From: a virus
Taxonomy: Duplodnaviria > Heunggongvirae > Uroviricota > Caudoviricetes
Length of the DNA stretch: 64,000 nt
Virus record (IMG/VR): IMGVR_UViG_2654587772_000002
Direction: 5' to 3' (one strand)
The position numbers and the translations under genes were made by a program. The notes under the pieces are model-generated. The model had not been told where the DNA came from and did not search any database. It was given only the letters and a program-made list of their open reading frames with translations. This document shows positions 40,625 to 57,516 of this stretch, in pieces; position 1 is the first letter of the stretch; each line of letters opens with the position of its first letter.

Positions 40625-40828
40625 TTATAATTGAGCCGTGGCGTTAGTCAACTACGAAGACGTGGCCATTACCTACTTAACCAGTTCCGCCAGGGCAGCA
40701 GAGTAGGTTTCATCTCGGATGTACCATGCCTGCATGTTTTCCAGAGAAGCCCGCGAGGTTCCCGGACAGGACTCTGCCATTGCGATAGATTAAATGCAAT
40801 AACCTAAAAGCGATAACGTGGTGGAAAA

Positions 40829-41468
40829 ATGTTCATCAGAGCTTATTTAAGGGCATCAACGGAAGATCAGTTTGCCGATCGGGCAAAAGAGATGCTGGGG
40901 CAGTTTGTTCAGGAGCGGGGACATAAAATAGCCAGTTACTACCGGGAGAACATAAGCGGTACAAAACTCGACCGCCGGAACTGGGACGCTTACTGATGGA
41001 CAGCCACCGCAATGATATTTTACTGGTCGAGCAAATTGACCGCCTGACCCGTCTGAGTAACAGTGACTGGATTACGCTGAAAAAGCAGATAGAACAACAC
41101 GAACTGCGGATTGTCGCCTGGATGTATCCACCTCATGGCAGGCGCTGTCAGATAAAGACCCTTCGCAGGCTGACCCAATCACCCGCGCCGTGATAACCGC
41201 CATCAATAACATGCTTATCGACCTGATGGCCGCGATGTCGCATAAGGACTGGCTGAGCCGTCGCCAACGGCAACAACAGGGAATTGAACGGGCTCATACG
41301 CTGGGTAAATACCGGGGATAACAGGCCGATCAGGAACGGCATCAGAAAGTCCTGTACTACTGGCAGGTCAAGAAACTAAGTATCCATGAAACGGCAGATG
41401 CGACAGGGTACAGTCCTTCACAGATATGCCGCATTCAAGCCCTTTATAGAGAGCCTGAATCGGAATAA
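40829..41468 (+). pseudogene. Serine recombinase (resolvase/invertase family) pseudogene with at least 3 frame disruptions
   Basis: MFIRAYLRASTEDQ... / DRPELGRLLMDSHRNDILLVEQIDRLTRL / ...HETADATGYSPSQICRI (HTH) in three different frames. Confidence 0.6.
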
Positions 41469-41574
41469 AAAGTAGCCCAGGCGTTAATGGATTACCTTTC
41501 CAGGCTAAGCTCATTGCTCCTGTCAGATACGCAGCCCTGCCTGTAATAATACAGACTGGGCAATGTGTTGCCAC

Positions 41575-41976
41575 TCAGGCTGACAACTGTCGGAGGATAT
41601 CCGCTGTATTATAATGAGCCCGTTTTTCTATATATTTCCCGTCTTTCAGAGTGATCATAAACATCAGAGAAAAGCGCACTTTCCTGCCGCTGGCAGGATG
41701 CCCAAGGAATTCACGGGTCTGCACGCCTTCAAAGATAAGATAGCAGGCGACTTTATCGTCTCTGGCAAAGATTTCGTGGATACGCATTGTAAATCCCGGA
41801 AAAGCATCCATATGGCCTTTTTCCTGTACGATAAACTGCTCACTGTTCAGCGGTGTATCCACCTGAGAATAGAATTTAAAATCCGGATGGCAGAGGTTTT
41901 TCACCTCATCATATTTATTTTCTTCAATCAGACGATAAAACTTTTTAACCGTTTTGATATTTTCTTAAACAGACAT
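41575..41976 (-). pseudogene. SnoaL-like small protein with in-frame TAA at codon 4 (ATG TCT GTT TAA)
   Basis: Natural ATG at 41976 followed by stop at 41965-41967, frame then open to 41575; NTF2/SnoaL-like composition. Confidence 0.45.
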
Positions 41977-41984
41977 ATTGCACC

Positions 41985-42974
41985 TCATTTTTCAGTTTCT
42001 TTACCTGCCGGAATATTGCCTTCCGGCGTTCCGTTAAATGTTTTTCGCCATTCACTGGGACTGACTCCCATCCGCTGCCGGAATATCTGCCGGAAAGTAA
42101 TGGTGGACTGAAAGCCTGCCAGTTCGGCAACCCGCTCCACTGCAATATCTGTACTTTCCAGCAGTTCCTGACTCCGCCGGAGACGCTCTGTGGTGATCCA
42201 CTCCCAGACCGTCATTCCTGTGGCCGAATGAAAATGGCGTGTAAGCGTTCTTCGGCTCATGGAGGCTAAATGGGCCAGAGTGTCAATATCATGTGGTAAT
42301 CCCAGATTTGCGGACAGGTATTCCAGCAGCTGGTTTATGCGGTTATCGGACGTACTTTTGGGAATAAGCAGTTGCCGGTACTGTGCCTGTCCGCCTTCCC
42401 GGTAAGGAGGAGCAACCATCCGGCGGGCTATTTGATTAGCCGTATATCTGCCCAGGCGTTGCCGGATCACATGGAGACAACAGTCCAGTGCTGCGGCTGT
42501 ACCGGCTGAGGTGATAATCCGCTCGTCCTCAACATAAAGCACGTTCACGTCCAGATGAACCGCCGGGAAAAGCATCTGGAAATCCCGTTCAGCCTCCCAG
42601 TGCGTGGCCGCCCGTTTACCATCCAGCAGACCGGTGTAAGCCAGAACAAAACTCCCCAGGCACAGGCCCACCACCTGAGCTCCATTTTTCCAGGCTGCAA
42701 CCAGGGCACTGAGCAGAGTTTCAGAAGGCCTTTCATGGATGTGTTTCCAGAAAGGAATAATAACGATATCGGCCTCTGCCAGTGCATCAAGCCCGTATTC
42801 TGCCCTCATCGCCGTACCTTCAGCAGACCAGATAAGCCCGGGCTCTTCCGCACATACCCGGCGGCTGAAGAGGGCCTTCCCTTCCAGTATCTCCCCGAAC
42901 AGGATTAATGGAACGGAGACATGAAATGTACTGAACCCTTCGGTGATCACTATAGCGACAGTGATGGTGGACAT
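41985..42974 (-). CDS. GlxA-family transcriptional regulator (DJ-1/PfpI domain + AraC HTH)
   Basis: N-terminal class-I glutamine amidotransferase-like region, C-terminal AraC-type HTH. Confidence 0.75.
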   Translation of the reverse strand: MSTITVAIVITEGFSTFHVSVPLILFGEILEGKALFSRRVCAEEPGLIWSAEGTAMRAEYGLDALAEADIVIIPFWKHIHERPSETLLSALVAAWKNGAQVVGLCLGSFVLAYTGLLDGKRAATHWEAERDFQMLFPAVHLDVNVLYVEDERIITSAGTAAALDCCLHVIRQRLGRYTANQIARRMVAPPYREGGQAQYRQLLIPKSTSDNRINQLLEYLSANLGLPHDIDTLAHLASMSRRTLTRHFHSATGMTVWEWITTERLRRSQELLESTDIAVERVAELAGFQSTITFRQIFRQRMGVSPSEWRKTFNGTPEGNIPAGKETEK

Positions 42975-42989
42975 GCCATGGCCTCCGGG

Positions 42990-43766
42990 TTAAATCGTAA
43001 CTGATTCACCATCAGCAGGAGCGACAACTGACGCCTGGATCTGGTTATCGCGGGCATATTCCAGCAGTTCCTGACGGGTCAGCAGACAGTGGTTTACGGC
43101 CTCCATGTGCGTTGCCACAATCAGTGCCTCTGGTACGATACGATGGGCTTTCAGGACATCTTCCCTGCCGAAAATAATGGGGCCGAATCCGAGAACATGC
43201 GCCCAGCCCGTATTCATAATAACGACGCCAGGATTGAACCGACGTAAATTATCCTCTACAGCCTTGATCCAGATGGTATCCCCAACCAGATAGAGCGTTT
43301 TTTCGGACGGATGCTGGAAGACCACCCCACAGGCATCCCCAAGAATTGCTGCGAGTTGCGGGTTAGCATAGGCTTCGTCCGAACCATGCTGACAAACGGT
43401 TTTAATAAGTGAAATTTCGCCAAATGTGCTTTTGTCAGACAGAATAACAAGGTTGCTGAAGCCCTGGGAACGCAGGATCTTTTCATCATGTTCATTCTGA
43501 ACATAAATCAGTTTATCTTTCGGGATGTGCGCAACAGCCGCTTCATCCCAGTGGTCAGGGTGTGTGTGGGTGACAATAATGGCATCCACATCCAGCAGTA
43601 CATCAAGGTCAAAAGGCAGCTCAGTCATCGGGATGCGGATATCTGACCGGGCCGTTCCTTCGAATCCCGGATAGGCTTCTTTTTTCGCAAGCATCGGATC
43701 GACAAGAAATTTTTTACCAGCGTAAGAAATGAGTTGTGTGGCGTTACGTACCTGGATGATCTTCAT
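42990..43766 (-). CDS. MBL-fold metallo-hydrolase
   Basis: THTHPDHWDE (HxHxDH) motif. Confidence 0.75.
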   Translation of the reverse strand: MKIIQVRNATQLISYAGKKFLVDPMLAKKEAYPGFEGTARSDIRIPMTELPFDLDVLLDVDAIIVTHTHPDHWDEAAVAHIPKDKLIYVQNEHDEKILRSQGFSNLVILSDKSTFGEISLIKTVCQHGSDEAYANPQLAAILGDACGVVFQHPSEKTLYLVGDTIWIKAVEDNLRRFNPGVVIMNTGWAHVLGFGPIIFGREDVLKAHRIVPEALIVATHMEAVNHCLLTRQELLEYARDNQIQASVVAPADGESVTI

Positions 43767-43981
43767 TTTAGCAAGTCCTGTATTGGTTAATAACCATCAG
43801 AGCCATATCATGATGGCCTAATGTGATAATTATGATTAAATCAGGCCTGCCTGCCACTGAAATAATGCCATATTTGGATGATATCAGGCCATTCTTCTGG
43901 CTCTCAGGTTTCAGGAATATGTCTGCTGAAAGCGGGTACAGATCTGACGCATTGAAGGGAAGTATCGTCCTTTAAGGCTTA

Positions 43982-44371
43982 TTGATGTCAGCCAGTACAA
44001 AAAATCATCTTAACGTACAATATCTTCCGTTTCCCAAACGGAGCCCACCAACGACGGAGGAACGGCGCATCGCCAATGCTCTTGGCGCTCTCCCCTGCAT
44101 TGCCTGCTATATGCCTGGAGTAATATCTAATGAGGTGTCTCTGAACCATATCGCCGGTCGTACCGCGCCGGGTTGTCACAAAAAGCAATTGCCACTTTGT
44201 AGATGGCACCACCAGCATGCAGCACCGGCTGAAGTAAGAGAAAAATACCCCTGGCTGGTCCCTGTTCATGCCGATGGTGTGGTTGGAGGCAAGAAAGAAT
44301 TCACCTTGCTGAACAAGTCAGAGATGGAGTTGCTGGCTGACGCCTATGAAATGGCAAACGTCATGCACTAA
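43982..44371 (+). CDS. Cys/His-rich small protein (possible HNH/Ref-like nuclease core)
   Basis: CIACY...NHIAG...GCHKK..PLCRWHHQH pattern. Confidence 0.35.
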   Translation: MMSASTKNHLNVQYLPFPKRSPPTTEERRIANALGALPCIACYMPGVISNEVSLNHIAGRTAPGCHKKQLPLCRWHHQHAAPAEVREKYPWLVPVHADGVVGGKKEFTLLNKSEMELLADAYEMANVMH

Positions 44372-44560: not shown

Positions 44561-45205
44561 ATGGATAAGAAAATATGCGTTGTTTCGATGAGCGTCGGTA
44601 AACCGGCGTCAATGACTGCTGCATGGATCAACAACGAGCTGATAATGGCTGAGCGGACCAGCTACCCTGAACGCCGCCGCGATATGGAACTCCAGCTGCT
44701 GCGCGAATTGCGAGAAAAAGAGGAAAAGGGTTTTATCGTGCTGGTGGAAGAGGAAAACAGCTTTATTACCGGTCGAGTTGGCCAGCGTGTAAGGTTGCGC
44801 GATCCCTTCATGAACGGCAGGCCGGTACTAATTGAAGCAATGCAGATTTACAAGGAGCTGGAACGCCAGAAAGCGATCAAGTTACCGCGCAAGGAATCCG
44901 GCAAATACATCCTCCACCAAAGCATCTTCGATTCCGAACACGATAAAAAAGGCGATGAGTTTTTCAACATCAACTGGAGCGAAATAACGACAGAGCATGT
45001 TCTGACGTTGTTATGCTGCTTCGCAACAGAATACAACAACGTGGTAAGCGCAGACTACATCAGGACAATGACAGACACCGTTACTAAACAAGACAACGAA
45101 TATTCACCATATGAGCCATTTGTAAATATGATAAAAGCATTTTATCGGATGGAGCTCGCTAAAGTTCCTCAAGGTAAATTAACAGGTAAGGATAACATCT
45201 TTTAA
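44561..45205 (+). CDS. Hypothetical protein (214 aa)
   Basis: AGGGGG SD, ATG 44561. Confidence 0.45.
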   Translation: MDKKICVVSMSVGKPASMTAAWINNELIMAERTSYPERRRDMELQLLRELREKEEKGFIVLVEEENSFITGRVGQRVRLRDPFMNGRPVLIEAMQIYKELERQKAIKLPRKESGKYILHQSIFDSEHDKKGDEFFNINWSEITTEHVLTLLCCFATEYNNVVSADYIRTMTDTVTKQDNEYSPYEPFVNMIKAFYRMELAKVPQGKLTGKDNIF

Positions 45206-45258
45206 GCACAGTAATGAGGTGCTTAGATGTTAATATCAATATCCTAACTCTCTGCATC

Positions 45259-45948
45259 TCATAAATCTGATAGCCACTTACTATCTATGGACTCAATCTC
45301 CGTCAGCGGAATTGATGGGAAAAAATATCCCTGAGCGCCCCATAGCCCTATTCCTTTTGATAACTTATGACAATCAATGTTTTCGACGCCTTCAGCGATG
45401 ATATTCGGACATAACTTTTTTAAATTGCTAATAATGACATCAAAATGAGGCTTAATCATATGCTCTTGAAAAAATGACTTATCAAGTTTTATTGCATGGT
45501 ATTTATTTTTAATTAATGCTTTCATGGTGGCGTTACCACTTCCAAAATCATCAAGCCAAACATAGTCTGTCAAAGTCAGGAGAAAGGGTATAACGTAATC
45601 CTCATCGCTTAAATCAGGGTAGTTTTCTGATATCTCAAGAACTATAAATTTATTGTTTTTAATTAACTCTTGAGTTTGTTTATTACTGTATATATATATA
45701 CATGTATCATAATCTACATTAATAGAACATAGTATATTATGGCGTTCAAAAAAACACTTGTATTTCATTATTGTGTTAAGTTGTGATTTAAGTAAATTAA
45801 TCTTCATCTTATTGGTAAACATACCCAATACTCTTTGAGTAGGAAGAGCGACACCATCTTTGGAGCGAAATCTGCTTAACACTTCTACTGCAATCAACTT
45901 GTTCGTGCTCGTAGAAATGATTGGTTCTGCAATGTAGATAACTTCCAT
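45259..45948 (-). CDS. Stand-alone EAL-domain protein (c-di-GMP phosphodiesterase-like), AT-rich gene
   Basis: EVL(SRF), ENYP, DDFGSG, KLDKSF, EGVE motifs in EAL order. Confidence 0.75.
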   Translation of the reverse strand: MEVIYIAEPIISTSTNKLIAVEVLSRFRSKDGVALPTQRVLGMFTNKMKINLLKSQLNTIMKYKCFFERHNILCSINVDYDTCIYIYSNKQTQELIKNNKFIVLEISENYPDLSDEDYVIPFLLTLTDYVWLDDFGSGNATMKALIKNKYHAIKLDKSFFQEHMIKPHFDVIISNLKKLCPNIIAEGVENIDCHKLSKGIGLWGAQGYFFPSIPLTEIESIDSKWLSDL

Positions 45949-46184
45949 ATCCCCACCCTCAAGTTTTAAATTGCTTGATTTTGCTCAGATAACGAGCCCC
46001 CTATATTTACAAGAGTTACACTCTACTTTTGTAGATTAAATGTCAATTTATTTGTTTGTGATAATATTGAAAAATATCAATTAAAACAATCAAAAAATGT
46101 GACATAAATCAATAATTTTATTTTTACACAACTTCTTGATTTCTGAGCCTAGCTATCTCTATTCTTATTCAAAGCCTCTTTAGA

Positions 46185-46919
46185 ATGGTGGTGGCCATGT
46201 CAGCAGTTTGTTACTTCATACTCATAAAGAAACCTATAAGCTTTCAATTTCTTAAGGATTTCTTAATATTAAATTATGGTGATGTGTTGTTGCTTAAGCA
46301 TTCTGAGCATGAATGCTTAAAAATCTATTCAGACAAATATATAGAATTCGAACTCAATGATAATACCGTAAGAAACTATTTATCATGCAACAACAACCAT
46401 GGAAACCAATCGCTGGATAAGTGTCCGCATTTGCTAAAAAAGTCTTTTGCCTATCCTGATTTATTAATCAGGATGATCGATAATATAAGCGATCAAAATC
46501 ATATCCATTCTGATTTTAGGGAGGCAGTAACTTTTTCATTACTCTCAATTTTTAATGATGTTGATAACTTTAGAGCATTTCTTACGTCTGGTATGCCCAC
46601 TTTCTCAGGGAAAGTGCGCAGCATATTTCTTTCAGATGTATCTAAACACTGGAAACTAAGAGACCTAACCGATTATCTCTACATGAGTGAAAGCTTAATA
46701 AAGAAAAAACTATTATTGGAAAACACCTCCTTCAGTAAGTTATTACTTGATACACGGATGGCTTTTGCTATTAAATTACTAAAGCAAAATCATCCAGTCA
46801 AACAAGTATCAGAAAGCTGTGGCTTTAGTAGTACATCGTACTTTGTGTGCCTGTTCAGGCAATATTATAATTGCACGCCACGTGAATATGCAAAACATCA
46901 ATTATTATCTGGAAAATAA
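46185..46919 (+). CDS. AraC-family regulator of the AppY/EnvY/GadX/Rns type, AT-rich gene
   Basis: C-terminal HTH closely resembles E. coli AppY (WKLRDLTDYLYMSESLIKKKL...TRMAFAIKLL...SSTSYFVCLFRQYY). Confidence 0.75.
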   Translation: MVVAMSAVCYFILIKKPISFQFLKDFLILNYGDVLLLKHSEHECLKIYSDKYIEFELNDNTVRNYLSCNNNHGNQSLDKCPHLLKKSFAYPDLLIRMIDNISDQNHIHSDFREAVTFSLLSIFNDVDNFRAFLTSGMPTFSGKVRSIFLSDVSKHWKLRDLTDYLYMSESLIKKKLLLENTSFSKLLLDTRMAFAIKLLKQNHPVKQVSESCGFSSTSYFVCLFRQYYNCTPREYAKHQLLSGK

Positions 46920-46957
46920 GATGCATTTATCTCCCAGATAATATTGTAATATTAAAC

Positions 46958-47206
46958 TCAGTCAGCATTTAGTAGCAGAGCATTATCTATGATGATCTGC
47001 TCCCATTCTTCGAATGCCCGGTCACGGACGCCCTGGGGAACACTGTTTGTTTTGAAATCAACGACTGTCCGCCATTTCCCGTCCGGACGGTACATGCGCA
47101 GAGCTTTACTTCCCCCTTCCCTACGCACCTCAACGTTATGCTTGTCAGCAAACTCTTGTAATGCTCGTAGCGTCCCATGCTTTACTGTGTAGTATCGCTT
47201 TTTCAA
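46958..47206 (-). CDS. Small protein at lxc position (immT-like)
   Basis: 82-aa ORF downstream of ulx/darB on same strand. Confidence 0.5.
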   Translation of the reverse strand: MKKRYYTVKHGTLRALQEFADKHNVEVRREGGSKALRMYRPDGKWRTVVDFKTNSVPQGVRDRAFEEWEQIIIDNALLLNAD

Positions 47207-47643
47207 GTTTTCTCTCCAGCCTGTGCCAAGGCTTCAACTTCCAAATCGTAAGACTCAAACTCATAGTCCTGGTCGTCAACTTCTTCAGGCACTGGCAGTA
47301 AATGCCAGGCTGAGTATATCTGACCATTATCAAAACGCTCCTGGCTGTAGAGCGTCGCAGCTATGAGCGTCAGCGCCGGGCGGTCATAACGGTAAATTTT
47401 GCGAACGTCACGGTCAACGAGACGACCGAAATTACCATAACCGCGCTCCAGTAATAATTTTTTAATTTCCGGCCAGTATGGGCCATAGCTGCGGTACAGG
47501 CGGGGATTTTTCAGTAATCGCCCGCGTAGCCCTGACAGGAAGAAATCAACGTATTCGTCTTCTGTCTTTCCTAACAACGCTGTACGGAGTACCGCCTCAA
47601 GATATGTTTTATTCGGTTTTATTGTATCAGATAGTGTGGCCAT
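47203..47643 (-). CDS. Protein at ulx position (between darB and lxc)
   Basis: 146-aa ORF, ATGA-type overlap with downstream gene. Confidence 0.5.
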   Translation of the reverse strand: MATLSDTIKPNKTYLEAVLRTALLGKTEDEYVDFFLSGLRGRLLKNPRLYRSYGPYWPEIKKLLLERGYGNFGRLVDRDVRKIYRYDRPALTLIAATLYSQERFDNGQIYSAWHLLPVPEEVDDQDYEFESYDLEVEALAQAGEKT

Positions 47644-47676: not shown

Positions 47677-50600
47677 TTATGCGTATTGTTGGATGACGGC
47701 CAGAACGTCCGCCACGTTGTGTTTTGTCTCGATAATCCACCAGTTACCCGGGAAATCGCTGTTCTTCGCCTTCGCTGGCAGCCAGCGAGCGCCGAATTTC
47801 GCCTTGATTGCGTCTTTCGCACGGAAAAGAACGCCTTTCATGCCTGAGGCTTCCTGAAGCCCAAATACCTCGCCAGCGGCGAATTTTGGTGCGTACATCA
47901 TCTTCAGGTCGGCGGTGGATACGCGATAATTCAGACCTAGAGACTGAGCTATGCTGGTGGCATCACCCTGTATTGATGATAACTCTTCTTGTTTCTCGTT
48001 TCTGGCGGCAATCTCTTCCTCCGTGATGTTGCCAAGGGCCAGGTTTATCCGATCAGCGTCGGCCTGTTTCTCTTCATCGGTGCGCCCGGCAAGAACCGTG
48101 TTAATTCTCTGCAATATCTCCACATGATTCTTGCGCATGCTGAGCAATTCCGGCGTAACCTCGTTAAGATCCACCAGCCCAAGGATGGCAAGGTCGGAAA
48201 ACATTGATACCAGGTTGTAGGTCATGCGATAGCTGAGTTGACCATAGGCTGATGGCAACTTCACCGCATCCATTTGATAGGCATCCATAAATTTAGAGCC
48301 GTCGTTTACGACATCCGCTATTGCAGGTGTGATTTTCCCTGTGGTGGCGGCCTCCCTGATTGCTGTTACCCACGATTGAGTCAGCGCGGCGACTGCATGA
48401 TTCAGATTGGCTTCCCGTTCTGCTGCGATGCGCGCGCTTGCTGCGTCCATTGCCTGCTTGATCTCGGCTTTATTGCTGTAAATGCCAATGGTGCCAAACT
48501 GTGCTGTGGTGATCTCATAATCTGACGCCCGGAACTCATTGGTACCGAAAATGGCATTGGTGACTTCAAGTTCAGAATCCCCGTTACGAGTAGCCCCCTG
48601 GCTTGTTTTTTCCGGCATTCTGGCGATCGCATCCGCTATTTTCTCCTGAATTGCTTCAGGGGATAGCGTATCTCCGTATGACGCGATTACATCGCCATAA
48701 TTGGAGCCAAACAATTCAACCAGGAATGTTTCTGCCGAACGGATCTGGCGGTTATTCCCTTCCGACATCATACCAAGCACCCATTTTGCAATTGACGACT
48801 TCAGCGCGACGTCACGGCGATCCGGGTAAACCGCATGCTTCAGTGGGTCCGTATAGGTACCAACAAAATCAATGCTATAGCCTGACTCTGTAGTCTGAAC
48901 GCCGTATGAGTCAGTGATTTTGATCATGCCGCGCTGCTGGAAACGGTAGAAATCGTCACAGGAAATGATGTCGTTAATCCCGGCGATGGAGACGCCGCCA
49001 CTGATTTTCTGCATAACAGCATCTTCATCGGGAGTTACATCAACCTGTTTATCCAGCGTCTTCACATCCCAGTTACCCGATTTGGTACCTTTGAAGGTAA
49101 AGATAATCTCCACGTCTGCGCGCAGGCTGTCGAAGTCCAGCGACTTAATGCGAACGATATCACCGGCACAATCGTAGTATTGGCCTACACGCCATGAGCG
49201 ATCGCCGATAATAAGGAACTCACTCGCATGGTTAACCAGGTCAGGATCAACATCCAGAATGCCTTTATTTATTGCATCCTCCACCAGCGGGCGCAGGCGT
49301 TTGATATCCGTCGCGGCCTTCTGAGTACGGTTCAATAATTTCTCATAGCGGGAGATGGCTTGAGAGATATTAGCCTTGCGCTGAATGGCGCTTTTCAACG
49401 ACGCGCGATACTGTGCTAACAACGTACGGTCTGTGTGATGGACGCTACCCCAGCGGGCTTTCCAGTCTGCGTTATCAGCTGCTTTGGCCATTACCGCCTG
49501 TTTGAATTTGGCGACGTCGGCGGTGGTCTTTTCAAGTTCCGCTTTGCTTCGCTCTAATTCAGCGGTAAGCACCTCCACATCCTCACCAGCTGCGTGCTGC
49601 GCCTTGATGTAGTTCTGAAGGTCGATAGTAGCCTGTTCTTTCTGGCGAGCGCGTTGCGCGGCTTTCGCCTTATCCATTTGAACCTGCATCATTGCCAGAC
49701 GTTCGCCATCATCCTTAGCGGTATACATCTGCATTTCGATCATATCGTTGGCGTCGGCGTTCTCCATTTCTGACTTATCTGAACGGAGGATATCGGAGAT
49801 CCAACCTGCTTTACGCTTCAGCGTCTTCAGTCGGTATTCATCGAAAGAACCCTTGCCGCAGTAGTAGTGAACGCGAACGCTTGCACGGTTGGAACCAACT
49901 CGGGCACCGCGACCGTTACGCTGTGCGATACTGGCTGGTGTCCATGGCAACGTCAGATGATGGATGTCAGTCGTTCCTCGATGCAGGTTGATACCCACCT
50001 CTGCCTTTTTGTTGCAGATGATGATCGGAGTCCGGCCCTCCTGGAAGTCGGCTGCAATCTTTTCCAGACCGCCCAACGACATTTCATTTTGCTGCGCGAT
50101 ATAGGCGTCATACAGAGCTATTTGCTCGTTGTATTTCGCTATCTGTGCATCTGTTGGTTCATCCGGTAACTCTTTCGGCGGTTTAACCGCTTTCAGTTTC
50201 TTACCGGTTTTACCTGCCTCGGCAACCGTCTGAGCATTCAGGATCCCCACCTTTGAAGGTTCAAGGTTAAGAGCATTGCAGATAATGCGCTTGAGCTTCT
50301 GGTGTTGCGTTTTTTCATCGGTGAAGATGATTTGCTTACCTTCTGGGAAAAACTCCTTCAGCGTGGCAATCAGCTTCGCGTATTTGGGCGTAACGGGGTG
50401 AGTTACGGTCTGTTCGTCAATGCCAAACTTGGCCAGGCGCTTATTCACTTCCTGCTCAAATGCTTCCGGTACCTGCAACTGAATAAACTCGCCCTTATCT
50501 ATCAGGGAGTATTGCGATTGCTGCGTGATTGAATCATCACTGTCGTCGTCTTCGCTGGTGGCTTGTTTGGGCAAACTGTCCGCCAGCTGCTGCACCGCAT

Positions 50601-53600
50601 CGGCGTACTCCGGCAGGAAACGATAGGTGATCCGGCGATAGTACAGGTCCATGTCAGTACATACGCGGTCCATATCCCTGATTATTGAGAAGATCGGACG
50701 GGCTTTCTCGTGCTCAATCACGCCGTCTTCATTGACCGAGGTCATTACGCCATTGTTGGCTTTGGCCGCCGCTTCCGCCTGCTGACGCAATTCTTCATAC
50801 GCCGCCAGTTGTTCTTCAGTAAGTGGTGCATCCTGCTGGTGTTCGTCCAGCTCCGGGATCTCCACGGTATCCTTAACGTCTTCCGCCGTTTTAAGCGTTA
50901 CCCAGCGATGGAATATACCGCGCAGCGCATCAAGGTTTTCAAAGCCCACCAGCGCCATTTTTTCTTCAACTTCACCGCTGATTTTCTGTACCGTTTCCAG
51001 CCTGGTCTTGCCGAAGAATTTAACGAAGTCATCAGGACCGTAGATCCCCATCTTCTGCCAGTATTCCTTCGGCAGAACATGAGAAAGCATGTTGTATGCA
51101 TCGATCGGGGTGTTAACGACTGGCGTTGCAGTCAGGAGAACCGGCCCGCGCCCGCCATTCTTTTTCATCAGGTACGCGTTTTTAATTGCCATATCTCGCG
51201 CCGATTGCGCCACCGCGCTGGTGGGCAGATAGGCCAGCTGTGACGCTTCGCGACCATTTTTATAGCTATTGCGGTAGTTGTGGCCTTCGTCAGCAATCAC
51301 GCTGTCGAAGCCCATATCCTCAAAGTACGGATACTTCTCTGCTTTTTCGGTACCGGTATCTGAATACTCCGACAATACCCGGCGACGCGCCGCCTCTTTG
51401 CGATGGGAATCGGAGTCCATTGCGCTGGCCACACGCCTGGCAGCAACGAAGTCATAAAGCATGTCTTGTGCATGCTCATCTACGGTGTCATCACGTAGCG
51501 GAATGCGGGCGTATTGTTCTTTGGTAAACACGACTGCACGGTAGTTTGAGTGCGGGATCGCGTTCATCCGCGCCGTGATAGTGGCTTCATCTGCCAGTTT
51601 AAGGGCATCGCGCATAACGGGAGTGCCATCTGCACCAACGACAGGTTTACCGTTCTCATCGAGCACCGGCACCTGGCGAATCTGATCGCCATCCATCAGC
51701 ACATCAAGACCGACGAACAGGTAGTTACTGAATGCCTCTTCACTCAGGAACTCTTTTGCTTCGTAATACCAGTTTTCCAGCACTGCTTTAGGCACTACAT
51801 AAGCAGTACGGGTGGAGCGACCGTTCTCATAGTTGAACGCCTCAAGCGCCAGCGCGGTCGTCGTTTTACCCAGCCCGGTGCCGAAGCCCAGGATGCCGCG
51901 CCCATCTTCGGACAGTCGGCGCACCTCGCTATTCTGGTAATCAAATGGCTGGCGCTTACCGCTTAATCCCTTCAACCCAAGCGGATCGCCAGAGTGTTCA
52001 TACGGGATATTGCTATTGAACACATCGTTGTATTTGGCAACCAACTCATCGTAGCGATCGTGCGTCTTGATCCACTTATTGAACTGGTCCTCAAGCAGTG
52101 CCATCTGCTCGCGGTAGCCGTTCGCCGTCGCGCTATCTTTGCCACCGATACGCGCACCATTGAGATACTTTTCCAGCTGTGCCGGGAACCCGGTCGCGTT
52201 TTCACCTGATTTACGGTCCCACTCGTAGCGGATCTCGCCTGTTTCTTTATCCTTGCGCTGGACGACACCGTATCGGTGCCCTACGAACAGGCCATCACCA
52301 CCGTGATAGGTGTCAGAAACCATTTCGTCGCCTTCCAGCTGCACTGACTGCACATAGCGCAGATCCGGATAGCCGTTTTCCTGCAAAAATTCCAGAATGA
52401 CGGAACGGTCGAACCAACGGCTATTGAGCTTAAACCGGATATTCTCTGCTGGCGTCTTGATGCGCTTCTCTTCGATCGCTGCCAGCTGATTAAGGACGTT
52501 GTTCTTTACTGGACCGTCGGGGAGCGTGGCGAGGAATTCCTGTTTTGGAGCCACTATCTCGTTAATGTCGCCGCTGGTGGCGCGGGCAAACGGAACAATC
52601 CCGCCATACGGTGAAACCGCAATACCAGGGGTGCTGGCCAATAAATTAAGCAACTCGTCATCACTGGCTGGCAGTTCGCCGGTAAACGCAAGGCGGAAAT
52701 CATCGAGCTGGATTGGATCGCGGGTAAGATCGCTATAGAGATAACGCAGGGTGTCCTGATAGCTGTTGGAGTCATAACTGGCGCTGGAGTCATGCGTAAC
52801 CAGCTTTCCTGTCAGCTCGTCTGAAATAGAGCCATCCAGCTTAATCGCACCACGGAAAGCAAACCAGGCGCGCGCACCGCTCCCCGACAATTTCGCTATA
52901 GGACCGCGACCAGGATTACCAAAGCGGTCAATCTCTGCCTGCAAACGGGATACCAGAGAAAGGCGCTGCTGTTCGATTTGTTCAGCACTATGCCCGGCGG
53001 CCTTCATATCCTGATATTCAATTAACATCCGGCCAATCATCGCCCCGCGATACAAGCGTTCACGGTATTTTTCAGGCTGGCTGTTAATCCAGTCCACCAG
53101 CTGCACCATATCGTCGCTGATTGATGTGGTGTACTTATCGCGGACATTTGCCATCTGGGTAAATGTCATGCCGAGACGGCCTTCTGTTGTAGTCAGGTTA
53201 CGCTGAAGAGCCTCCCAGCTATCCGCGCCATAACTGGCAGCATCGATCTTAAGTTCCTTCCCGGCATCAGCTTCAATCCAGCGACCACCAGCATATTTTT
53301 GCCATACGCCATTAATCAGGCGCATTTCCCCTTCACCAACAACGTCTGCGGTCGGTGACGGTTCAGCCATATCGAGCAAAGACCAGTCGATACGGCTTTC
53401 GAAACGATGAATCAGCTTCGCTTTAAGAGCCTGGTTATCAATCTGACCGTCGGCACGAACCTCAATACGCCCCTGGAAGCCCTTTTCCTGGGTGCCATGA
53501 ACAAACCGGCGGCCATCCTTTTCAAACCACTTGCCAGAAATAAACGTTGGCCAAAGCACATTTGCCGATTCAAGAGTGCTTTCATCCACCAGGGGGATTT

Positions 53601-54444
53601 TCTCAGCCATCTCTGCCGGATGTTTGCGCATCAGCACCACATCAACGACTGTACTGGTCCCGTTTGCGTCAAAAGTACCGGTAGGCAAGCGGTGAGCGCC
53701 AAGAAATTCAGCTTTACGGGATAAGCGCAGGCGTAACCGCTTCATGTTTGAACCTGAAACAATGGACGGCGGCACAATCACGCACATGAATCCGCCTGGC
53801 TTTATCTTGTCCAGCATGCGGAGCATGAAGTAAGAACCCATGTCCGTTTCTTCTGCGTAAGGCTTATCGATGTTGCGTGTGTTATCACGACCGCCGAACG
53901 GAACGTTACCCACAACATGGTCGAATGAATCGTTAGGCGTGCTTATAGCCAGCTGTTCGAACGGGGAAATCTGTACGCTGTCTTCCGGGTGTAACAACTG
54001 GTTTATACGACCGGAAACACTGCTGATCTCAGTCGCGGTCATCACCGTACCAACCGGTTTTGTCTCATTAAAAACGCCGGTTCCCGCCGATGGTTCCAGA
54101 GTGTTACCTACGTCCGCGCCGTAGAGCTTCATGATCTCCCAGACACCTTCAGCGATCGGCTTTGGTGTGTAATATTCGGAGACGGACCCGCCAATGCCGC
54201 CTTCACCGGTGTACCCAGCCAGGATCTGGCGCTGTTCATCTGTCAGTGTCGCGCCGTCCACCAGCGAATTAAGCAAATCTATCGCCTTCTGATTCGCCTC
54301 CCGGCGCAGTCGGTCATAGCTTTTGCCTTCCACCTTTTCCACGCCGTATTTAATCGGCGCTCGGTGAGATGTTATTGCCCTAATGTATTTCAATATTTCG
54401 CTGACACTTGAACAGCAAAACACCCCCATAAATAGCTTGTTCAT
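47677..54444 (-). CDS. darB: DarB-like giant antirestriction protein (N-terminal MTase-like + DExH helicase domains)
   Basis: 2255 aa; GNVPFGG (NPPF-like), GFGTGLGKT Walker A, DEGHNYRN DExH box. Confidence 0.85.
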   Translation of the reverse strand: MNKLFMGVFCCSSVSEILKYIRAITSHRAPIKYGVEKVEGKSYDRLRREANQKAIDLLNSLVDGATLTDEQRQILAGYTGEGGIGGSVSEYYTPKPIAEGVWEIMKLYGADVGNTLEPSAGTGVFNETKPVGTVMTATEISSVSGRINQLLHPEDSVQISPFEQLAISTPNDSFDHVVGNVPFGGRDNTRNIDKPYAEETDMGSYFMLRMLDKIKPGGFMCVIVPPSIVSGSNMKRLRLRLSRKAEFLGAHRLPTGTFDANGTSTVVDVVLMRKHPAEMAEKIPLVDESTLESANVLWPTFISGKWFEKDGRRFVHGTQEKGFQGRIEVRADGQIDNQALKAKLIHRFESRIDWSLLDMAEPSPTADVVGEGEMRLINGVWQKYAGGRWIEADAGKELKIDAASYGADSWEALQRNLTTTEGRLGMTFTQMANVRDKYTTSISDDMVQLVDWINSQPEKYRERLYRGAMIGRMLIEYQDMKAAGHSAEQIEQQRLSLVSRLQAEIDRFGNPGRGPIAKLSGSGARAWFAFRGAIKLDGSISDELTGKLVTHDSSASYDSNSYQDTLRYLYSDLTRDPIQLDDFRLAFTGELPASDDELLNLLASTPGIAVSPYGGIVPFARATSGDINEIVAPKQEFLATLPDGPVKNNVLNQLAAIEEKRIKTPAENIRFKLNSRWFDRSVILEFLQENGYPDLRYVQSVQLEGDEMVSDTYHGGDGLFVGHRYGVVQRKDKETGEIRYEWDRKSGENATGFPAQLEKYLNGARIGGKDSATANGYREQMALLEDQFNKWIKTHDRYDELVAKYNDVFNSNIPYEHSGDPLGLKGLSGKRQPFDYQNSEVRRLSEDGRGILGFGTGLGKTTTALALEAFNYENGRSTRTAYVVPKAVLENWYYEAKEFLSEEAFSNYLFVGLDVLMDGDQIRQVPVLDENGKPVVGADGTPVMRDALKLADEATITARMNAIPHSNYRAVVFTKEQYARIPLRDDTVDEHAQDMLYDFVAARRVASAMDSDSHRKEAARRRVLSEYSDTGTEKAEKYPYFEDMGFDSVIADEGHNYRNSYKNGREASQLAYLPTSAVAQSARDMAIKNAYLMKKNGGRGPVLLTATPVVNTPIDAYNMLSHVLPKEYWQKMGIYGPDDFVKFFGKTRLETVQKISGEVEEKMALVGFENLDALRGIFHRWVTLKTAEDVKDTVEIPELDEHQQDAPLTEEQLAAYEELRQQAEAAAKANNGVMTSVNEDGVIEHEKARPIFSIIRDMDRVCTDMDLYYRRITYRFLPEYADAVQQLADSLPKQATSEDDDSDDSITQQSQYSLIDKGEFIQLQVPEAFEQEVNKRLAKFGIDEQTVTHPVTPKYAKLIATLKEFFPEGKQIIFTDEKTQHQKLKRIICNALNLEPSKVGILNAQTVAEAGKTGKKLKAVKPPKELPDEPTDAQIAKYNEQIALYDAYIAQQNEMSLGGLEKIAADFQEGRTPIIICNKKAEVGINLHRGTTDIHHLTLPWTPASIAQRNGRGARVGSNRASVRVHYYCGKGSFDEYRLKTLKRKAGWISDILRSDKSEMENADANDMIEMQMYTAKDDGERLAMMQVQMDKAKAAQRARQKEQATIDLQNYIKAQHAAGEDVEVLTAELERSKAELEKTTADVAKFKQAVMAKAADNADWKARWGSVHHTDRTLLAQYRASLKSAIQRKANISQAISRYEKLLNRTQKAATDIKRLRPLVEDAINKGILDVDPDLVNHASEFLIIGDRSWRVGQYYDCAGDIVRIKSLDFDSLRADVEIIFTFKGTKSGNWDVKTLDKQVDVTPDEDAVMQKISGGVSIAGINDIISCDDFYRFQQRGMIKITDSYGVQTTESGYSIDFVGTYTDPLKHAVYPDRRDVALKSSIAKWVLGMMSEGNNRQIRSAETFLVELFGSNYGDVIASYGDTLSPEAIQEKIADAIARMPEKTSQGATRNGDSELEVTNAIFGTNEFRASDYEITTAQFGTIGIYSNKAEIKQAMDAASARIAAEREANLNHAVAALTQSWVTAIREAATTGKITPAIADVVNDGSKFMDAYQMDAVKLPSAYGQLSYRMTYNLVSMFSDLAILGLVDLNEVTPELLSMRKNHVEILQRINTVLAGRTDEEKQADADRINLALGNITEEEIAARNEKQEELSSIQGDATSIAQSLGLNYRVSTADLKMMYAPKFAAGEVFGLQEASGMKGVLFRAKDAIKAKFGARWLPAKAKNSDFPGNWWIIETKHNVADVLAVIQQYA

Positions 54445-54510: not shown

Positions 54511-56241
<1,731 letters not shown>

Positions 56242-56273
56242 ACGGCAAACATTCCCAATTCACAGAGTCCGAC

Positions 56274-57404
56274 CTAAACCACATGAAGCGGCTTAGGAAT
56301 TACAGACTCTCCAAGGGCTAACACTGCCAGCCCGGCAGCTTTTATATTACGGGCCGCGTTAATATCACGATCATGCTCTGCGCCACATTCCGGGCAGTGC
56401 CATTTACGAATATTAAGAGGCATTTTTTGCATGGTGAAGCCGCAACTGCTGCAACGTTTGGAAGAAGGGAAATACTGGTCGATAGCGACAATGCTACGTC
56501 CACCCCATTCTCCTTTGTACTGGAGTTGGCGTACAAGTTCGCTCCAGCCTGCGTCAGCTATTGCTTTAGACAGCTTCGGGTTACGGATCATGTTTTTCAC
56601 TTTAAGGGATTCGACGCAAACAACTTGGTTTTCGTTAATCAGTTTGCGGGACAACTTATGCAGGTTATCCATCCGACAATCGACTATTCTCGCGTGGAGG
56701 CGGGCAACCTTTAAACGTGCTTTGGCGCGGTTCTTTGAGCCTTTTTGTTTCTTGCTCAATCTGCGCTGTAACACTGCTAATCGCTTCGCGTATTTAGCGT
56801 TGTGTCGAGGATTGCCAGTTTTAAAACCGGTATCGGTGACGAACAAATCTTTTAAACCAATATCAATGCCGACCGTGGAAACGGTGATCGGCAGTGATAC
56901 AGGCTCAAACTCGCAGAGACAGGATACAAAATATCGTCCGGCAGCATCCCTGGTGATAGTGACAGTGGATGGAGCAGACGGCAACGGACGGCTCCAGCGA
57001 ACATCTAACGGCTCTTTGCTCTTTGCCATGTACAGCTTGCCGTCACGGTATTTAAATGCGCTGGCAGTTAGTTCTGCGGCCTGTTTATGCCGCTTGCTCT
57101 TAAAAACTGGGTATGCAGCACGCCCGGCGAAAAAGTTAGCAAAAGCCGTTTGTTGGTGGCGCAGAGACTGCTGGAGGGGGACGCAGGAAACGTCATTCAG
57201 CCAAGCGAATTCTGGTTCTTTTTTCAGTGCCGTTAATTTGGCGCTGGCTTGTGCATAGCCGACCCTCTCATGGCGTGCGTAGTACGCATCGGTGCGCCAG
57301 CGAAGGAGGCTGTTATAGACAAAACGCACACACCCAAAAGTCCGGGCTAATAGCTCGGTTTGTTCGGGAGTTGGATAGAATCGATATTTATAGGCACGCT
57401 TCAT
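56274..57404 (-). CDS. tnpB: IS200/IS605-family TnpB (RuvC-like RNA-guided nuclease), no tnpA nearby
   Basis: N-terminal MKRAYKYRFYPTPEQ..., RuvC-like region, C-terminal zinc finger CSSCG...CPECG. Confidence 0.85.
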   Translation of the reverse strand: MKRAYKYRFYPTPEQTELLARTFGCVRFVYNSLLRWRTDAYYARHERVGYAQASAKLTALKKEPEFAWLNDVSCVPLQQSLRHQQTAFANFFAGRAAYPVFKSKRHKQAAELTASAFKYRDGKLYMAKSKEPLDVRWSRPLPSAPSTVTITRDAAGRYFVSCLCEFEPVSLPITVSTVGIDIGLKDLFVTDTGFKTGNPRHNAKYAKRLAVLQRRLSKKQKGSKNRAKARLKVARLHARIVDCRMDNLHKLSRKLINENQVVCVESLKVKNMIRNPKLSKAIADAGWSELVRQLQYKGEWGGRSIVAIDQYFPSSKRCSSCGFTMQKMPLNIRKWHCPECGAEHDRDINAARNIKAAGLAVLALGESVIPKPLHVV

Positions 57405-57516
57405 GTTCTATATAATACATTGAAACTAATGAGTATATAAATGAATACACGGACGAAAATGTTATCAAAGCCAATATACCAACAGACATTAGGTAAGGTA
57501 GCTGGAGGGCAATATA

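Follow-up and report, generated by a model that had tools for sequence, protein, structure and literature searches.

A mobile two-gene cassette of P1-like phage-plasmids encodes a predicted cyclic di-GMP phosphodiesterase with an intact active-site signature and an AraC-type regulator

The DNA analyzed here, referred to below as the window, is the whole stretch of 64,000 nucleotides of IMG/VR virus record IMGVR_UViG_2654587772_000002 and, as judged from its sequence, represents a P1-like phage-plasmid of the genus Punavirus. It contains two divergent genes, one for a stand-alone EAL-domain protein and the other for a regulator of the AraC type, in the order ref', mat, EAL, AraC, lxc, ulx, darB (Table 1). 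A first-pass annotation, made from the letters of the window, had described an AT-rich module consisting of a 229-residue open reading frame (ORF) at 45259–45948 on the minus strand and a divergent 244-residue ORF at 46185–46919 on the plus strand, and both are found exactly as described. The G+C content over 45259–46919 is 0.326, compared with 0.478 for the window and 0.48–0.51 for the immediate flanks, with values of 0.329, 0.284 and 0.336 for the EAL gene, the intergenic region and the AraC gene, respectively. Calculated over sliding windows of 1661 bp, the mean is 0.478 (standard deviation 0.035) and the minimum, 0.320, falls at position 45351; at about 4 standard deviations under the mean of equal-sized windows, the module is the most AT-rich stretch of the window. 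At third codon positions the G+C content is 0.32 for the EAL gene and 0.34 for the AraC gene, against 0.58 for darB. The initial observation is confirmed far beyond chance, and the pair is indeed a module of two AT-rich genes that was acquired horizontally and resides on a mobile element.

The EAL protein matches the Pfam profile PF00563 with 65.6 bits (cut-off 31.3, E = 5.5e-18), its residues 4–210 covering profile positions 14–233 out of 236. The set of catalytic, metal-binding and substrate-binding residues is complete (E22, R26, N77, E105, E108, D133, D134, K154, D156, E186, E189 and Q206). All 12 positions are equal to those of the active enzyme PdeL, giving the string ERNEEDDKDEEQ, whereas the corresponding strings are EHNQEGDKDGEQ in STM1697 and EHNLEGNMDGDQ in YdiV. 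The signature listed in the first-pass annotation (EVL, N, DDFGSG, K and EGVE) is present residue for residue with active PdeL/YahA, as are the further motifs R, EISE, KxD and QGY; the EVL motif, shared with PdeL, thus occurs in an active enzyme. Loss of the catalytic residues on careful alignment had been named beforehand as a finding that would refute the proposal; the alignment was made, and the residues are kept. In a family alignment of 21 sequences, down to 24% identity, 12 columns are invariant and 6 of them are catalytic (hypergeometric P = 4e-6), and once a single decayed copy is removed the catalytic columns make up 9 of the 18 invariant ones (P = 2e-9). Loop 6, for which the canonical sequence in the literature is DFG(T/A)GYSS, is non-canonical in the EAL protein, where it reads DDFGSGNATMKAL (DFGSGNAT). 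Among active enzymes, PdeL has DFGTGYAT and PdeH has DDFGTGMANFSAL (DFGTGMAN); since the highly active PdeH also departs from the canon, a deviation in loop 6 alone is no predictor of inactivity. Hydrolysis of cyclic di-GMP (c-di-GMP) to pGpG is, on the basis of these residues, the most likely activity of the protein.

The closest solved structures nevertheless belong to proteins of another kind, the EAL-like anti-FlhD4C2 factors STM1697 and YdiV/RflP known from Salmonella and E. coli. Searched with phmmer against solved structures, the EAL protein matches STM1697 at 1.5e-29 and YdiV at 6e-22, with PdeL/YahA well behind at 5e-9. BLASTP yields 117 bits for STM1697 (30% identity), 88 bits for YdiV (28%), 77 bits for PdeH (26%), 76 bits for SfaY/PdeY (25%) and 56 bits for the EAL domain of PdeL (28%), and the score between STM1697 and the EAL protein exceeds that between STM1697 and YdiV (93 bits). 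The NCBIfam PdeH profile PRK11596 aligns over the full length with 95.4 bits, under its equivalog cut-off of 190. The AlphaFold (AF2) model is an EAL barrel with a predicted local distance difference test score (pLDDT) of 93.3, and Foldseek matches it to YdiV with a template modelling (TM) score of 0.88 and a root-mean-square deviation (rmsd) of 1.9, to STM1697 with TM scores of 0.82–0.89, and to the EAL domain of PdeL with a TM score of 0.78 and an rmsd of 3.3. By sequence and modelled fold, the protein is of the YdiV/STM1697 structural type, with a catalytically intact signature. The two options offered by the first-pass annotation, an active phosphodiesterase or a YdiV-like protein, were apt in this respect, since the nearest solved relatives are YdiV and STM1697 and the catalytic signature is intact. 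With neighbour-joining (NJ) bootstrapping, the five EAL sequences from Escherichia coli mobile elements form a clade with 100% support, as do the PdeH and the MrkJ-like sequences, and no sister group of the query family is supported (0% for its grouping with STM1697, 54% for an inclusive group with STM1697 and YdiV). The proximity to STM1697/YdiV seen in an early NJ tree was dropped on these grounds. Identity with PdeU1-3 of uropathogenic E. coli was also considered and rejected; those proteins, members of a different family, carry DDFGTGYAT or DDFGTGYSC loops and are Tn21 tnpM-like.

The regulator belongs to the YdeO/AppY/GadX/Rns group of AraC/XylS proteins, as homology search, profiles and fold all indicate. 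Both Pfam profiles of its C-terminal double helix-turn-helix are matched over their cut-offs (HTH_18, 50.3 bits; HTH_AraC, 37.1 bits), and the NCBIfam YdeO profile aligns over the full length with 152 bits, below the equivalog cut-off of 348. The best full-length relative in E. coli K-12 by BLASTP is YdeO, with 35% identity over residues 5–237; from these scores the protein is classified as a relative of YdeO and not as its orthologue. The likeness to AppY proposed initially stands for the DNA-binding half (40% identity, residues 112–235 against AppY 109–233), whereas over the full length YdeO is closer and BLAST yields no alignment of the N-terminal domain with AppY. Similarly, 244 residues is the length of the maximal ORF from 46185, but this first ATG is not kept in a diverged allele; the conserved start is at 46197, as annotated in RefSeq, and yields 240 residues. 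Searches of the Protein Data Bank with phmmer recover CsvR (8e-21) and Rns (2.5e-20) over residues 46–236, and also ToxT and the DNA-binding domain of GadX. The AlphaFold model (pLDDT 87.7) finds Rns, CsvR and ToxT as full-length Foldseek matches, up to E = 1e-12, and superimposes on the DNA-binding domain of GadX with a TM score of 0.90 and an rmsd of 1.3. The global TM score of the full-length matches is only 0.43; we ascribe this to the two domains being positioned differently with respect to each other. Concerning the fatty-acid pocket of the Rns type (H20 and R75; PDB 8vst, 8vrq), R75, a fatty-acid contact, aligns with E56 of the query, so that the pocket is not conserved, and H20 falls outside the aligned region.

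The two genes travel together. The divergent pair occurs in other P1-like elements at 96/98% and about 90/90% protein identity (EAL/AraC). Conjugative IncX1 plasmids from E. coli and E. albertii carry it at 69/80%, adjoining the backbone genes hns-hha-topB; at the nucleotide level the IncX1 cassette (RCS50_p, L104) is 74% identical to the copy in the window. Virulence plasmids contain a decayed pair at 56/49%, with an IS66 element and a fimbrial operon of the Pap type as neighbours. The two genes accordingly co-diverge as one unit in P1-like elements and IncX1 plasmids, and in decayed form in virulence plasmids. Further away the association is lost: a 46% EAL relative beside the gene of a serine protease autotransporter of Enterobacteriaceae (SPATE) has no AraC partner, chromosomal EAL relatives in 80 other Enterobacterales species have no adjoining AraC partner, and AraC homologues at 50% and 37% identity have no EAL neighbour. 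On the virulence plasmids (loci L005–L008, e.g. CP010123.1) the copy is located between the gene of a 774-residue HTH_18 protein and IS66, by a fimbrial operon of the PapB type; the EAL gene of this copy encodes DNLGSGN and is frameshifted towards the C-terminus, and the AraC fragment retains residues 15–162 only. The regulator paralogue at 50% identity (235 residues; three E. coli contigs, L111, L113 and L114) follows the gene of a 206-residue protein of unknown family, without an EAL partner; a MotA-like gene and a gene for a LuxR-type response regulator are situated within a few kb.

Both genes are under purifying selection, with ratios of nonsynonymous to synonymous substitution rates (dN/dS) of 0.10–0.19 for the EAL gene and 0.08–0.20 for the regulator gene. 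Between P1 alleles of the cassette dS is 0.3–0.5, rising to 1.4–1.9 against the IncX1 allele, and is several-fold over that of the flanking mat, lxc and ulx (0.01–0.14); a cassette dS so far above that of its flanks fits a recombination hotspot at which old alleles are exchanged. In PLSDB, 128 of the 707 matching P1-type plasmids (about 18%) carry the cassette; among complete E. coli genomes, 145 of 5426 do (2.7%). Of 154 places found, 149 are on plasmids. Most copies are about 88% identical to that of the window, and the sole 100% match in complete E. coli genomes is in strain ST2747. This last copy (NZ_CP007393.1, 2164887–2178638) is found on a record labelled chromosome, among the P1-like genes c1, ref, ulx and darB, which reflects either an integrated P1-like element or an assembly join; darB is frameshifted there and intact in the window. 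Full-length database clusters count more than 1600 members, against a few tens in truncated clusters, and some copies of the cassette are interrupted by an insertion sequence (IS).

Comparison with phage P1 defines the limits of the cassette. Homology to P1 ends at position 45070 of the window (P1 3336, within the 3' end of mat) and restarts at 46962 (P1 9754, lxc); in this slot P1 itself holds 6.4 kb of res-IS5-mod, the type III restriction-modification (R-M) system EcoP1I. The site of res-mod corresponds to "variable region 1" of P1-like phage-plasmids, known for its low G+C content (PMC9603915), and the pair has the properties of cargo of this region, being located between mat and lxc with P1 backbone on either side and low in G+C. 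The last 135 or so nucleotides of mat (45071–45205, about 45 codons) lie outside the P1 homology, on the cassette side, and the C-terminus of Mat therefore differs from that of P1. In order to survey the slot we took 60 of the 707 PLSDB plasmids matching the flanks, evenly spaced along the ranked list. This sample showed a hypervariable slot: the EAL-AraC pair occupies it in 11–12 plasmids, SIR2 in 9, a YaaC-family protein in 9, DUF2971 in 6, RelA/SpoT in 5, and PIN and GNAT in one each, while 8 plasmids carry a large insert and in 3 the slot is empty. The SIR2, DUF2971, PIN and RelA/SpoT occupants match PADLOC defence models; the YaaC and GNAT occupants have no such match. Neither cassette protein has a significant match in PADLOC 2.0, the sole listed one having an E-value of 0.0089 with no stretch passing the cut-off, and in PHROGs both fall only into families of unknown function. 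The YaaC-family protein (346 residues) and its 169-residue partner (plasmid pEC12-3, locus 1194–2743) are among the commonest alternatives in the slot; neither matches the PADLOC models, and they are a candidate for an unrecognized defence pair.

The control region between the two start codons was analyzed by alignment of six alleles. It measures 236–248 bp, and the half on the regulator side hardly differs between alleles, including the one of 74% nucleotide identity, whereas the half on the EAL side is variable. The latter variation includes a (TTTG)n tract with 2 units in the window and 6 in a 96%-identical allele (IMG/VR contig L012), which may act as a slippage-prone spacer altering promoter geometry. 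An inverted repeat formed by CATAAATCAATAATTT and AACTTCTTGATTTCTG is a candidate operator; every allele, the 74% one included, has the cores AAATCAAT and CTTGATTT unchanged, and it overlaps both a CRP-like element, TGTGA-N6-TCAAT (46098–46113), and the candidate -35 hexamer. An Rfam scan of 44900–47300 at E <= 1 gave no match.

Table 1. Coordinates of the cassette, its parts and its flanking genes in the window
Feature	Position	Strand	Basis or remark
mat, left backbone flank, convergent with the EAL gene; last ~135 nt in the variable segment	44450–45205	+	ORF list, P1 comparison
Variable cassette, 1.9 kb	45071–46961	.	blastn against phage P1 (NC_005856); G+C 0.327
Stand-alone EAL-domain protein, 229 residues, predicted c-di-GMP phosphodiesterase	45259–45948	-	Pfam, PDB phmmer, family alignment, AF2/Foldseek, dN/dS
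Divergent control region between start codons, G+C 0.28	45949–46196	.	Alignment of six alleles; composition
(TTTG)n tract, 2 units	46051–46058	+	Alignment of six alleles
Inverted repeat, candidate operator	46103–46145	+	Repeat search; invariant columns
Candidate sigma-70 promoter of the regulator gene, TTGATT-18-TATTCT	46136–46165	+	By eye in the conserved block
AraC/XylS regulator, YdeO/AppY/GadX/Rns group, 240 residues	46197–46919	+	Pfam, NCBIfam, BLASTP, PDB, AF2/Foldseek, start codon, dN/dS
17-bp-stem inverted repeat, terminator-like, between the convergent regulator gene and lxc, inside the cassette boundary	46903–46943	-	Automatic scan
lxc, right backbone flank, modulator of the C1 repressor	46958–47206	-	ORF list, P1 comparison
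ulx	47203–47643		After lxc
darB	47677–54444		After ulx

Taken together, we consider it somewhat better than an even chance that the pair is a mobile regulatory ("moron") cassette of a P1-like phage-plasmid, composed of an active c-di-GMP phosphodiesterase and a dedicated AraC activator. According to this model the AT-rich cassette would probably be silenced by H-NS in the plasmid prophage, and the AraC protein would bind the conserved inverted repeat in the shared control region and counteract silencing, driving its own gene and the EAL gene, and possibly host targets like those of AppY/YdeO. Like its relatives AppY, YdeO, GadX and Rns, it would act on AT-rich promoters that H-NS probably silences, the divergent EAL promoter among them. 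The phosphodiesterase would then lower c-di-GMP, so that the lysogen makes less curli, cellulose and other surface polymers dependent on c-di-GMP and becomes more motile. A useful analogue is the prophage-encoded AppY, which raises acid resistance and biofilm formation and abolishes motility (PMC10057817); by analogy, a prophage regulator of such a type can rewire host traits. As the first-pass annotation envisaged, the cassette may affect motility, biofilm and acid stress.

Several observations weigh against this model. The loop 6 sequence GSGNAT is nearer to GVGNAT and GAGNST of STM1697 and YdiV than to canonical GTGYSS, and the nearest characterized relatives by both sequence and fold are these same non-catalytic FlhD binders. 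The argument for control of the EAL gene by the regulator is one of synteny. An automatic promoter scan returned 10 sites where 9.9 are expected, with no statistically supported promoter, and the AppY motif ATGSCWGM is absent from the control region of the cassette, its counts across the window being near chance. Frameshifts interrupt the EAL gene of phage Ro157c2YLVW and that of an E. fergusonii plasmid, and one IMG/VR contig has a frameshifted regulator gene. Finally, the slot is otherwise mostly filled by defence genes, which hints at a benefit other than general lysogenic conversion.

A first alternative is that the EAL protein acts as YdiV/RflP or STM1697 do, binding FlhD and blocking or destabilizing FlhD4C2 so that flagella are shut down in lysogens, with catalysis absent or irrelevant. 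STM1697 and YdiV are the top-scoring characterized relatives and the best fold matches, and the loop-6 motif G-x-G-N-A/S-T is held in common. We mapped the FlhD contacts of STM1697 (V115, L116, L136, V147, F160, K167, L172, L173, K175, H176 and Y180; PMC5622320) and of YdiV (F155, F168, F181 and A184) onto the query. In the hydrophobic core of the interface between STM1697 and FlhD, residues are either retained or exchanged conservatively (F160 for F159, L172/L173 for V171/I172, V147 for I146, K167 for K166), and the eleven contacts divide into 2 identical, 4 conservative and 5 non-conservative ones, the last being V115D, L116Y, K175S, H176N and Y180L; the YdiV residues F155, F168, F181 and A184 become I, F, I and N, so that of the key residues F155, F181 and A184 none is retained. 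As F159 and I172 are generic positions of the EAL fold, likewise F and I in PdeL, the mapping does not discriminate. As to the active site, the known binders have lost DDFG and EGVE, and the degenerate site that marks their class (GDLGVGN and GGQEN in STM1697, GNLGAGN and GGIDT in YdiV) is not what the query has, its family having kept the catalytic residues across a deep divergence, which requires selection on catalysis or ligand binding. The tree, in which no sister relationship is supported, lends the proposal no help either, and we regard it as rather improbable. Only slightly more probable, and still unlikely, is that the cassette is kept for protecting the lysogen from other phages, c-di-GMP depletion and/or a regulator-driven change of flagella or surface removing their receptors; the c-di-GMP-dependent NfrB polysaccharide required by N4-like phages would be an example. 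Such a role is compatible with the same biochemistry as the regulatory cassette. It draws on the hypervariable mat-lxc hotspot, whose SIR2, DUF2971, PIN and RelA/SpoT occupants match PADLOC, on the R-M system in the slot of P1 itself, and on phage SJ46, which encodes the defence protein CapRelSJ46 (PMC9712102) and whose slot carries a RelA/SpoT-family gene, the sole such gene seen there; moreover, overexpression of each of six E. coli c-di-GMP phosphodiesterases lowers the efficiency of plating of phage N4 to less than 8e-8 (PMC7553319). On the other hand, the location is circumstantial, given that the YaaC and GNAT occupants are likewise without defence matches; neither cassette protein matches PADLOC models or has an effector domain typical of defence, and the IncX1 copies adjoin hns-hha and not a defence island. 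To a more specific version, an unrecognized superinfection-exclusion or defence module of a new logic, we assign the same low probability: a signal sensed by the AraC protein would induce the phosphodiesterase to drain c-di-GMP, stripping c-di-GMP-dependent or flagellar receptors and protecting the P1 lysogen from N4-like or flagellotropic phages, and the EAL protein may in addition engage FlhD4C2 as a c-di-GMP-responsive "trigger enzyme" akin to STM1697/YdiV. The competition for the hotspot between the cassette and SIR2, CapRel, PIN and R-M genes would then have an explanation.

Two further explanations fare worse. That the two genes have no function and merely hitch-hike, under H-NS silencing and in slow decay, could be read from the frameshifted and IS-disrupted copies, the IS1-truncated "xeal" of IncX1 plasmids and the degenerate virulence-plasmid copy (P0015), but is contradicted by the selection data, namely dN/dS of 0.08–0.20 for both genes at dS up to 0.5 and, against the IncX1 allele, at 1.4–1.9; the invariance of the catalytic residues, the large majority of full-length database copies and the frequency of the cassette in P1-type plasmids and E. 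coli genomes also make it very improbable. We give least credence of all to the EAL protein being a counter-defence enzyme with which the phage destroys the cyclic-dinucleotide immune signals of a newly infected host, such as those of cyclic-oligonucleotide-based antiphage signalling systems (CBASS). The gene does lie near the anti-restriction genes ulx and darB, and its product has the fold of a cyclic-dinucleotide phosphodiesterase with an intact site. EAL enzymes are specific for c-di-GMP, however, and the known anti-CBASS nucleases are of other folds; the gene comes with an AraC regulator of its own and, instead of an early or late P1 promoter, with an AT-rich one that is probably silenced; the cassette is not confined to phages, being also carried by IncX1 plasmids.

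Both proteins come from well-known families and the cassette is already annotated generically in databases; comparison with known systems shows what sets it apart. STM1697 and YdiV/RflP resemble the EAL protein in being compact stand-alone EAL-type barrels of about 230 residues, and part of their hydrophobic FlhD-contact surface is kept. They neither bind nor cleave c-di-GMP (PMC5622320) and no longer have DDFG and EGVE; in the query the 12 active-site residues are all present, and the polar FlhD contacts K175, H176 and Y180 of STM1697 are absent. STM1697 and YdiV are, moreover, chromosomal and without an AraC partner, whereas the query is paired and borne by a mobile element. PdeH (YhjH), the main stand-alone phosphodiesterase of E. 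coli, is likewise a single-domain EAL protein with an intact site and a non-canonical loop 6, but it is encoded by a chromosomal gene of the flagellar regulon and forms a separate clade, in contrast to the AT-rich mobile cargo described here. Parallels in organization are SfaX-SfaY (PdeY) and MrkH/I-MrkJ of fimbrial islands and plasmids, horizontally acquired modules in which the gene of a small stand-alone EAL phosphodiesterase adjoins that of a dedicated transcription factor; SfaY, the relative detected above by BLASTP, carries DDFGSGN, and MrkJ is a proven phosphodiesterase according to work cited in PMC5023117. The SfaX and MrkH/I partners come from other regulator families (PapX/MarR-like; PilZ, LuxR) and these modules are attached to fimbrial operons, whereas the present cassette is free-standing, divergent and carried by phage or plasmid. 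AppY (of prophage DLP12) and the acid-resistance regulator YdeO of E. coli K-12 are, like the regulator of the cassette, AraC/XylS proteins of similar length encoded by AT-rich, horizontally acquired genes, but neither is paired with an EAL gene. The other occupants of the mat-lxc slot (EcoP1I res-mod, CapRelSJ46, SIR2, PIN and DUF2971) share the slot, the flanks and the character of low-G+C, exchanged accessory cargo, and differ from the EAL-AraC pair in matching known or candidate defence systems in PADLOC or in being R-M systems.

The only experimental work on this gene family concerns "xeal" of the IncX1 plasmids pOLA52 and pIS15_43, which is the IncX1 allele of the query gene, next to hns-hha-topB, and was studied as an IS1-truncated fragment. 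It shares 94% identity with P0011 (the protein 69% identical to the query) and, over the retained fragment, 63% with the query. Insertion of IS1/mrkABCDF has deprived each plasmid of the regulator gene and of 66–100 N-terminal residues of the EAL protein, EVL included, leaving a fragment that matches residues 67–226 in pOLA52 and an annotated ORF of 124 residues in pIS15_43. No effect on motility or on crystal-violet biofilm was reported for "xeal", and its overexpression lowered Congo-red binding (Madsen et al. 2016; PMC5023117). Because both plasmids tested carry truncated fragments, these phenotypes do not bear on the intact cassette, and their use as evidence for or against any of the explanations above was rejected. 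A literature search on P1-like elements and the EAL domain recovered no paper mentioning an EAL gene in P1-like elements.

What is distinctive here is the combination of a predicted catalytically intact protein of the YdiV/STM1697 fold, an AraC regulator of its own, carriage on P1-like elements and IncX1 plasmids, and a position in a hotspot otherwise dominated by defence genes. If the enzyme is active, a common phage-plasmid would alter the level of a second messenger in its host and hence biofilm formation, motility, colonization and possibly phage susceptibility; many of the P1-type plasmids with the cassette also spread resistance genes, and intact copies are carried by IncX1 conjugative plasmids as well. 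With the fold and the loop 6 of YdiV/STM1697-type adaptors and a complete active site, the EAL protein also provides a natural comparison point for the origin of such adaptors from enzymes.

Two other segments of the window depart from P1. The first (40673–44039) is a second cargo insertion of 3.4 kb in place of the 5' part of ref. It carries, all on the minus strand, an ester cyclase-like gene (41575–41904), the gene of a 329-residue regulator of the GlxA/AraC type (41985–42974) and that of a metallo-β-lactamase (MBL)-fold hydrolase (42990–43766), and ref is reduced to a remnant of 129 residues with a TTG start (43982–44371), the equivalent of which in ST2747 is annotated in RefSeq as a partial pseudogene. 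The second (56227–57504), an insertion of 1.28 kb, separates prt from pro (P1 19018/19001), and some 18 bp are repeated at its ends; it contains an ORF of 376 residues on the minus strand (56274–57404) that resembles TnpB, the transposon nuclease of the IS605-OrfB type.

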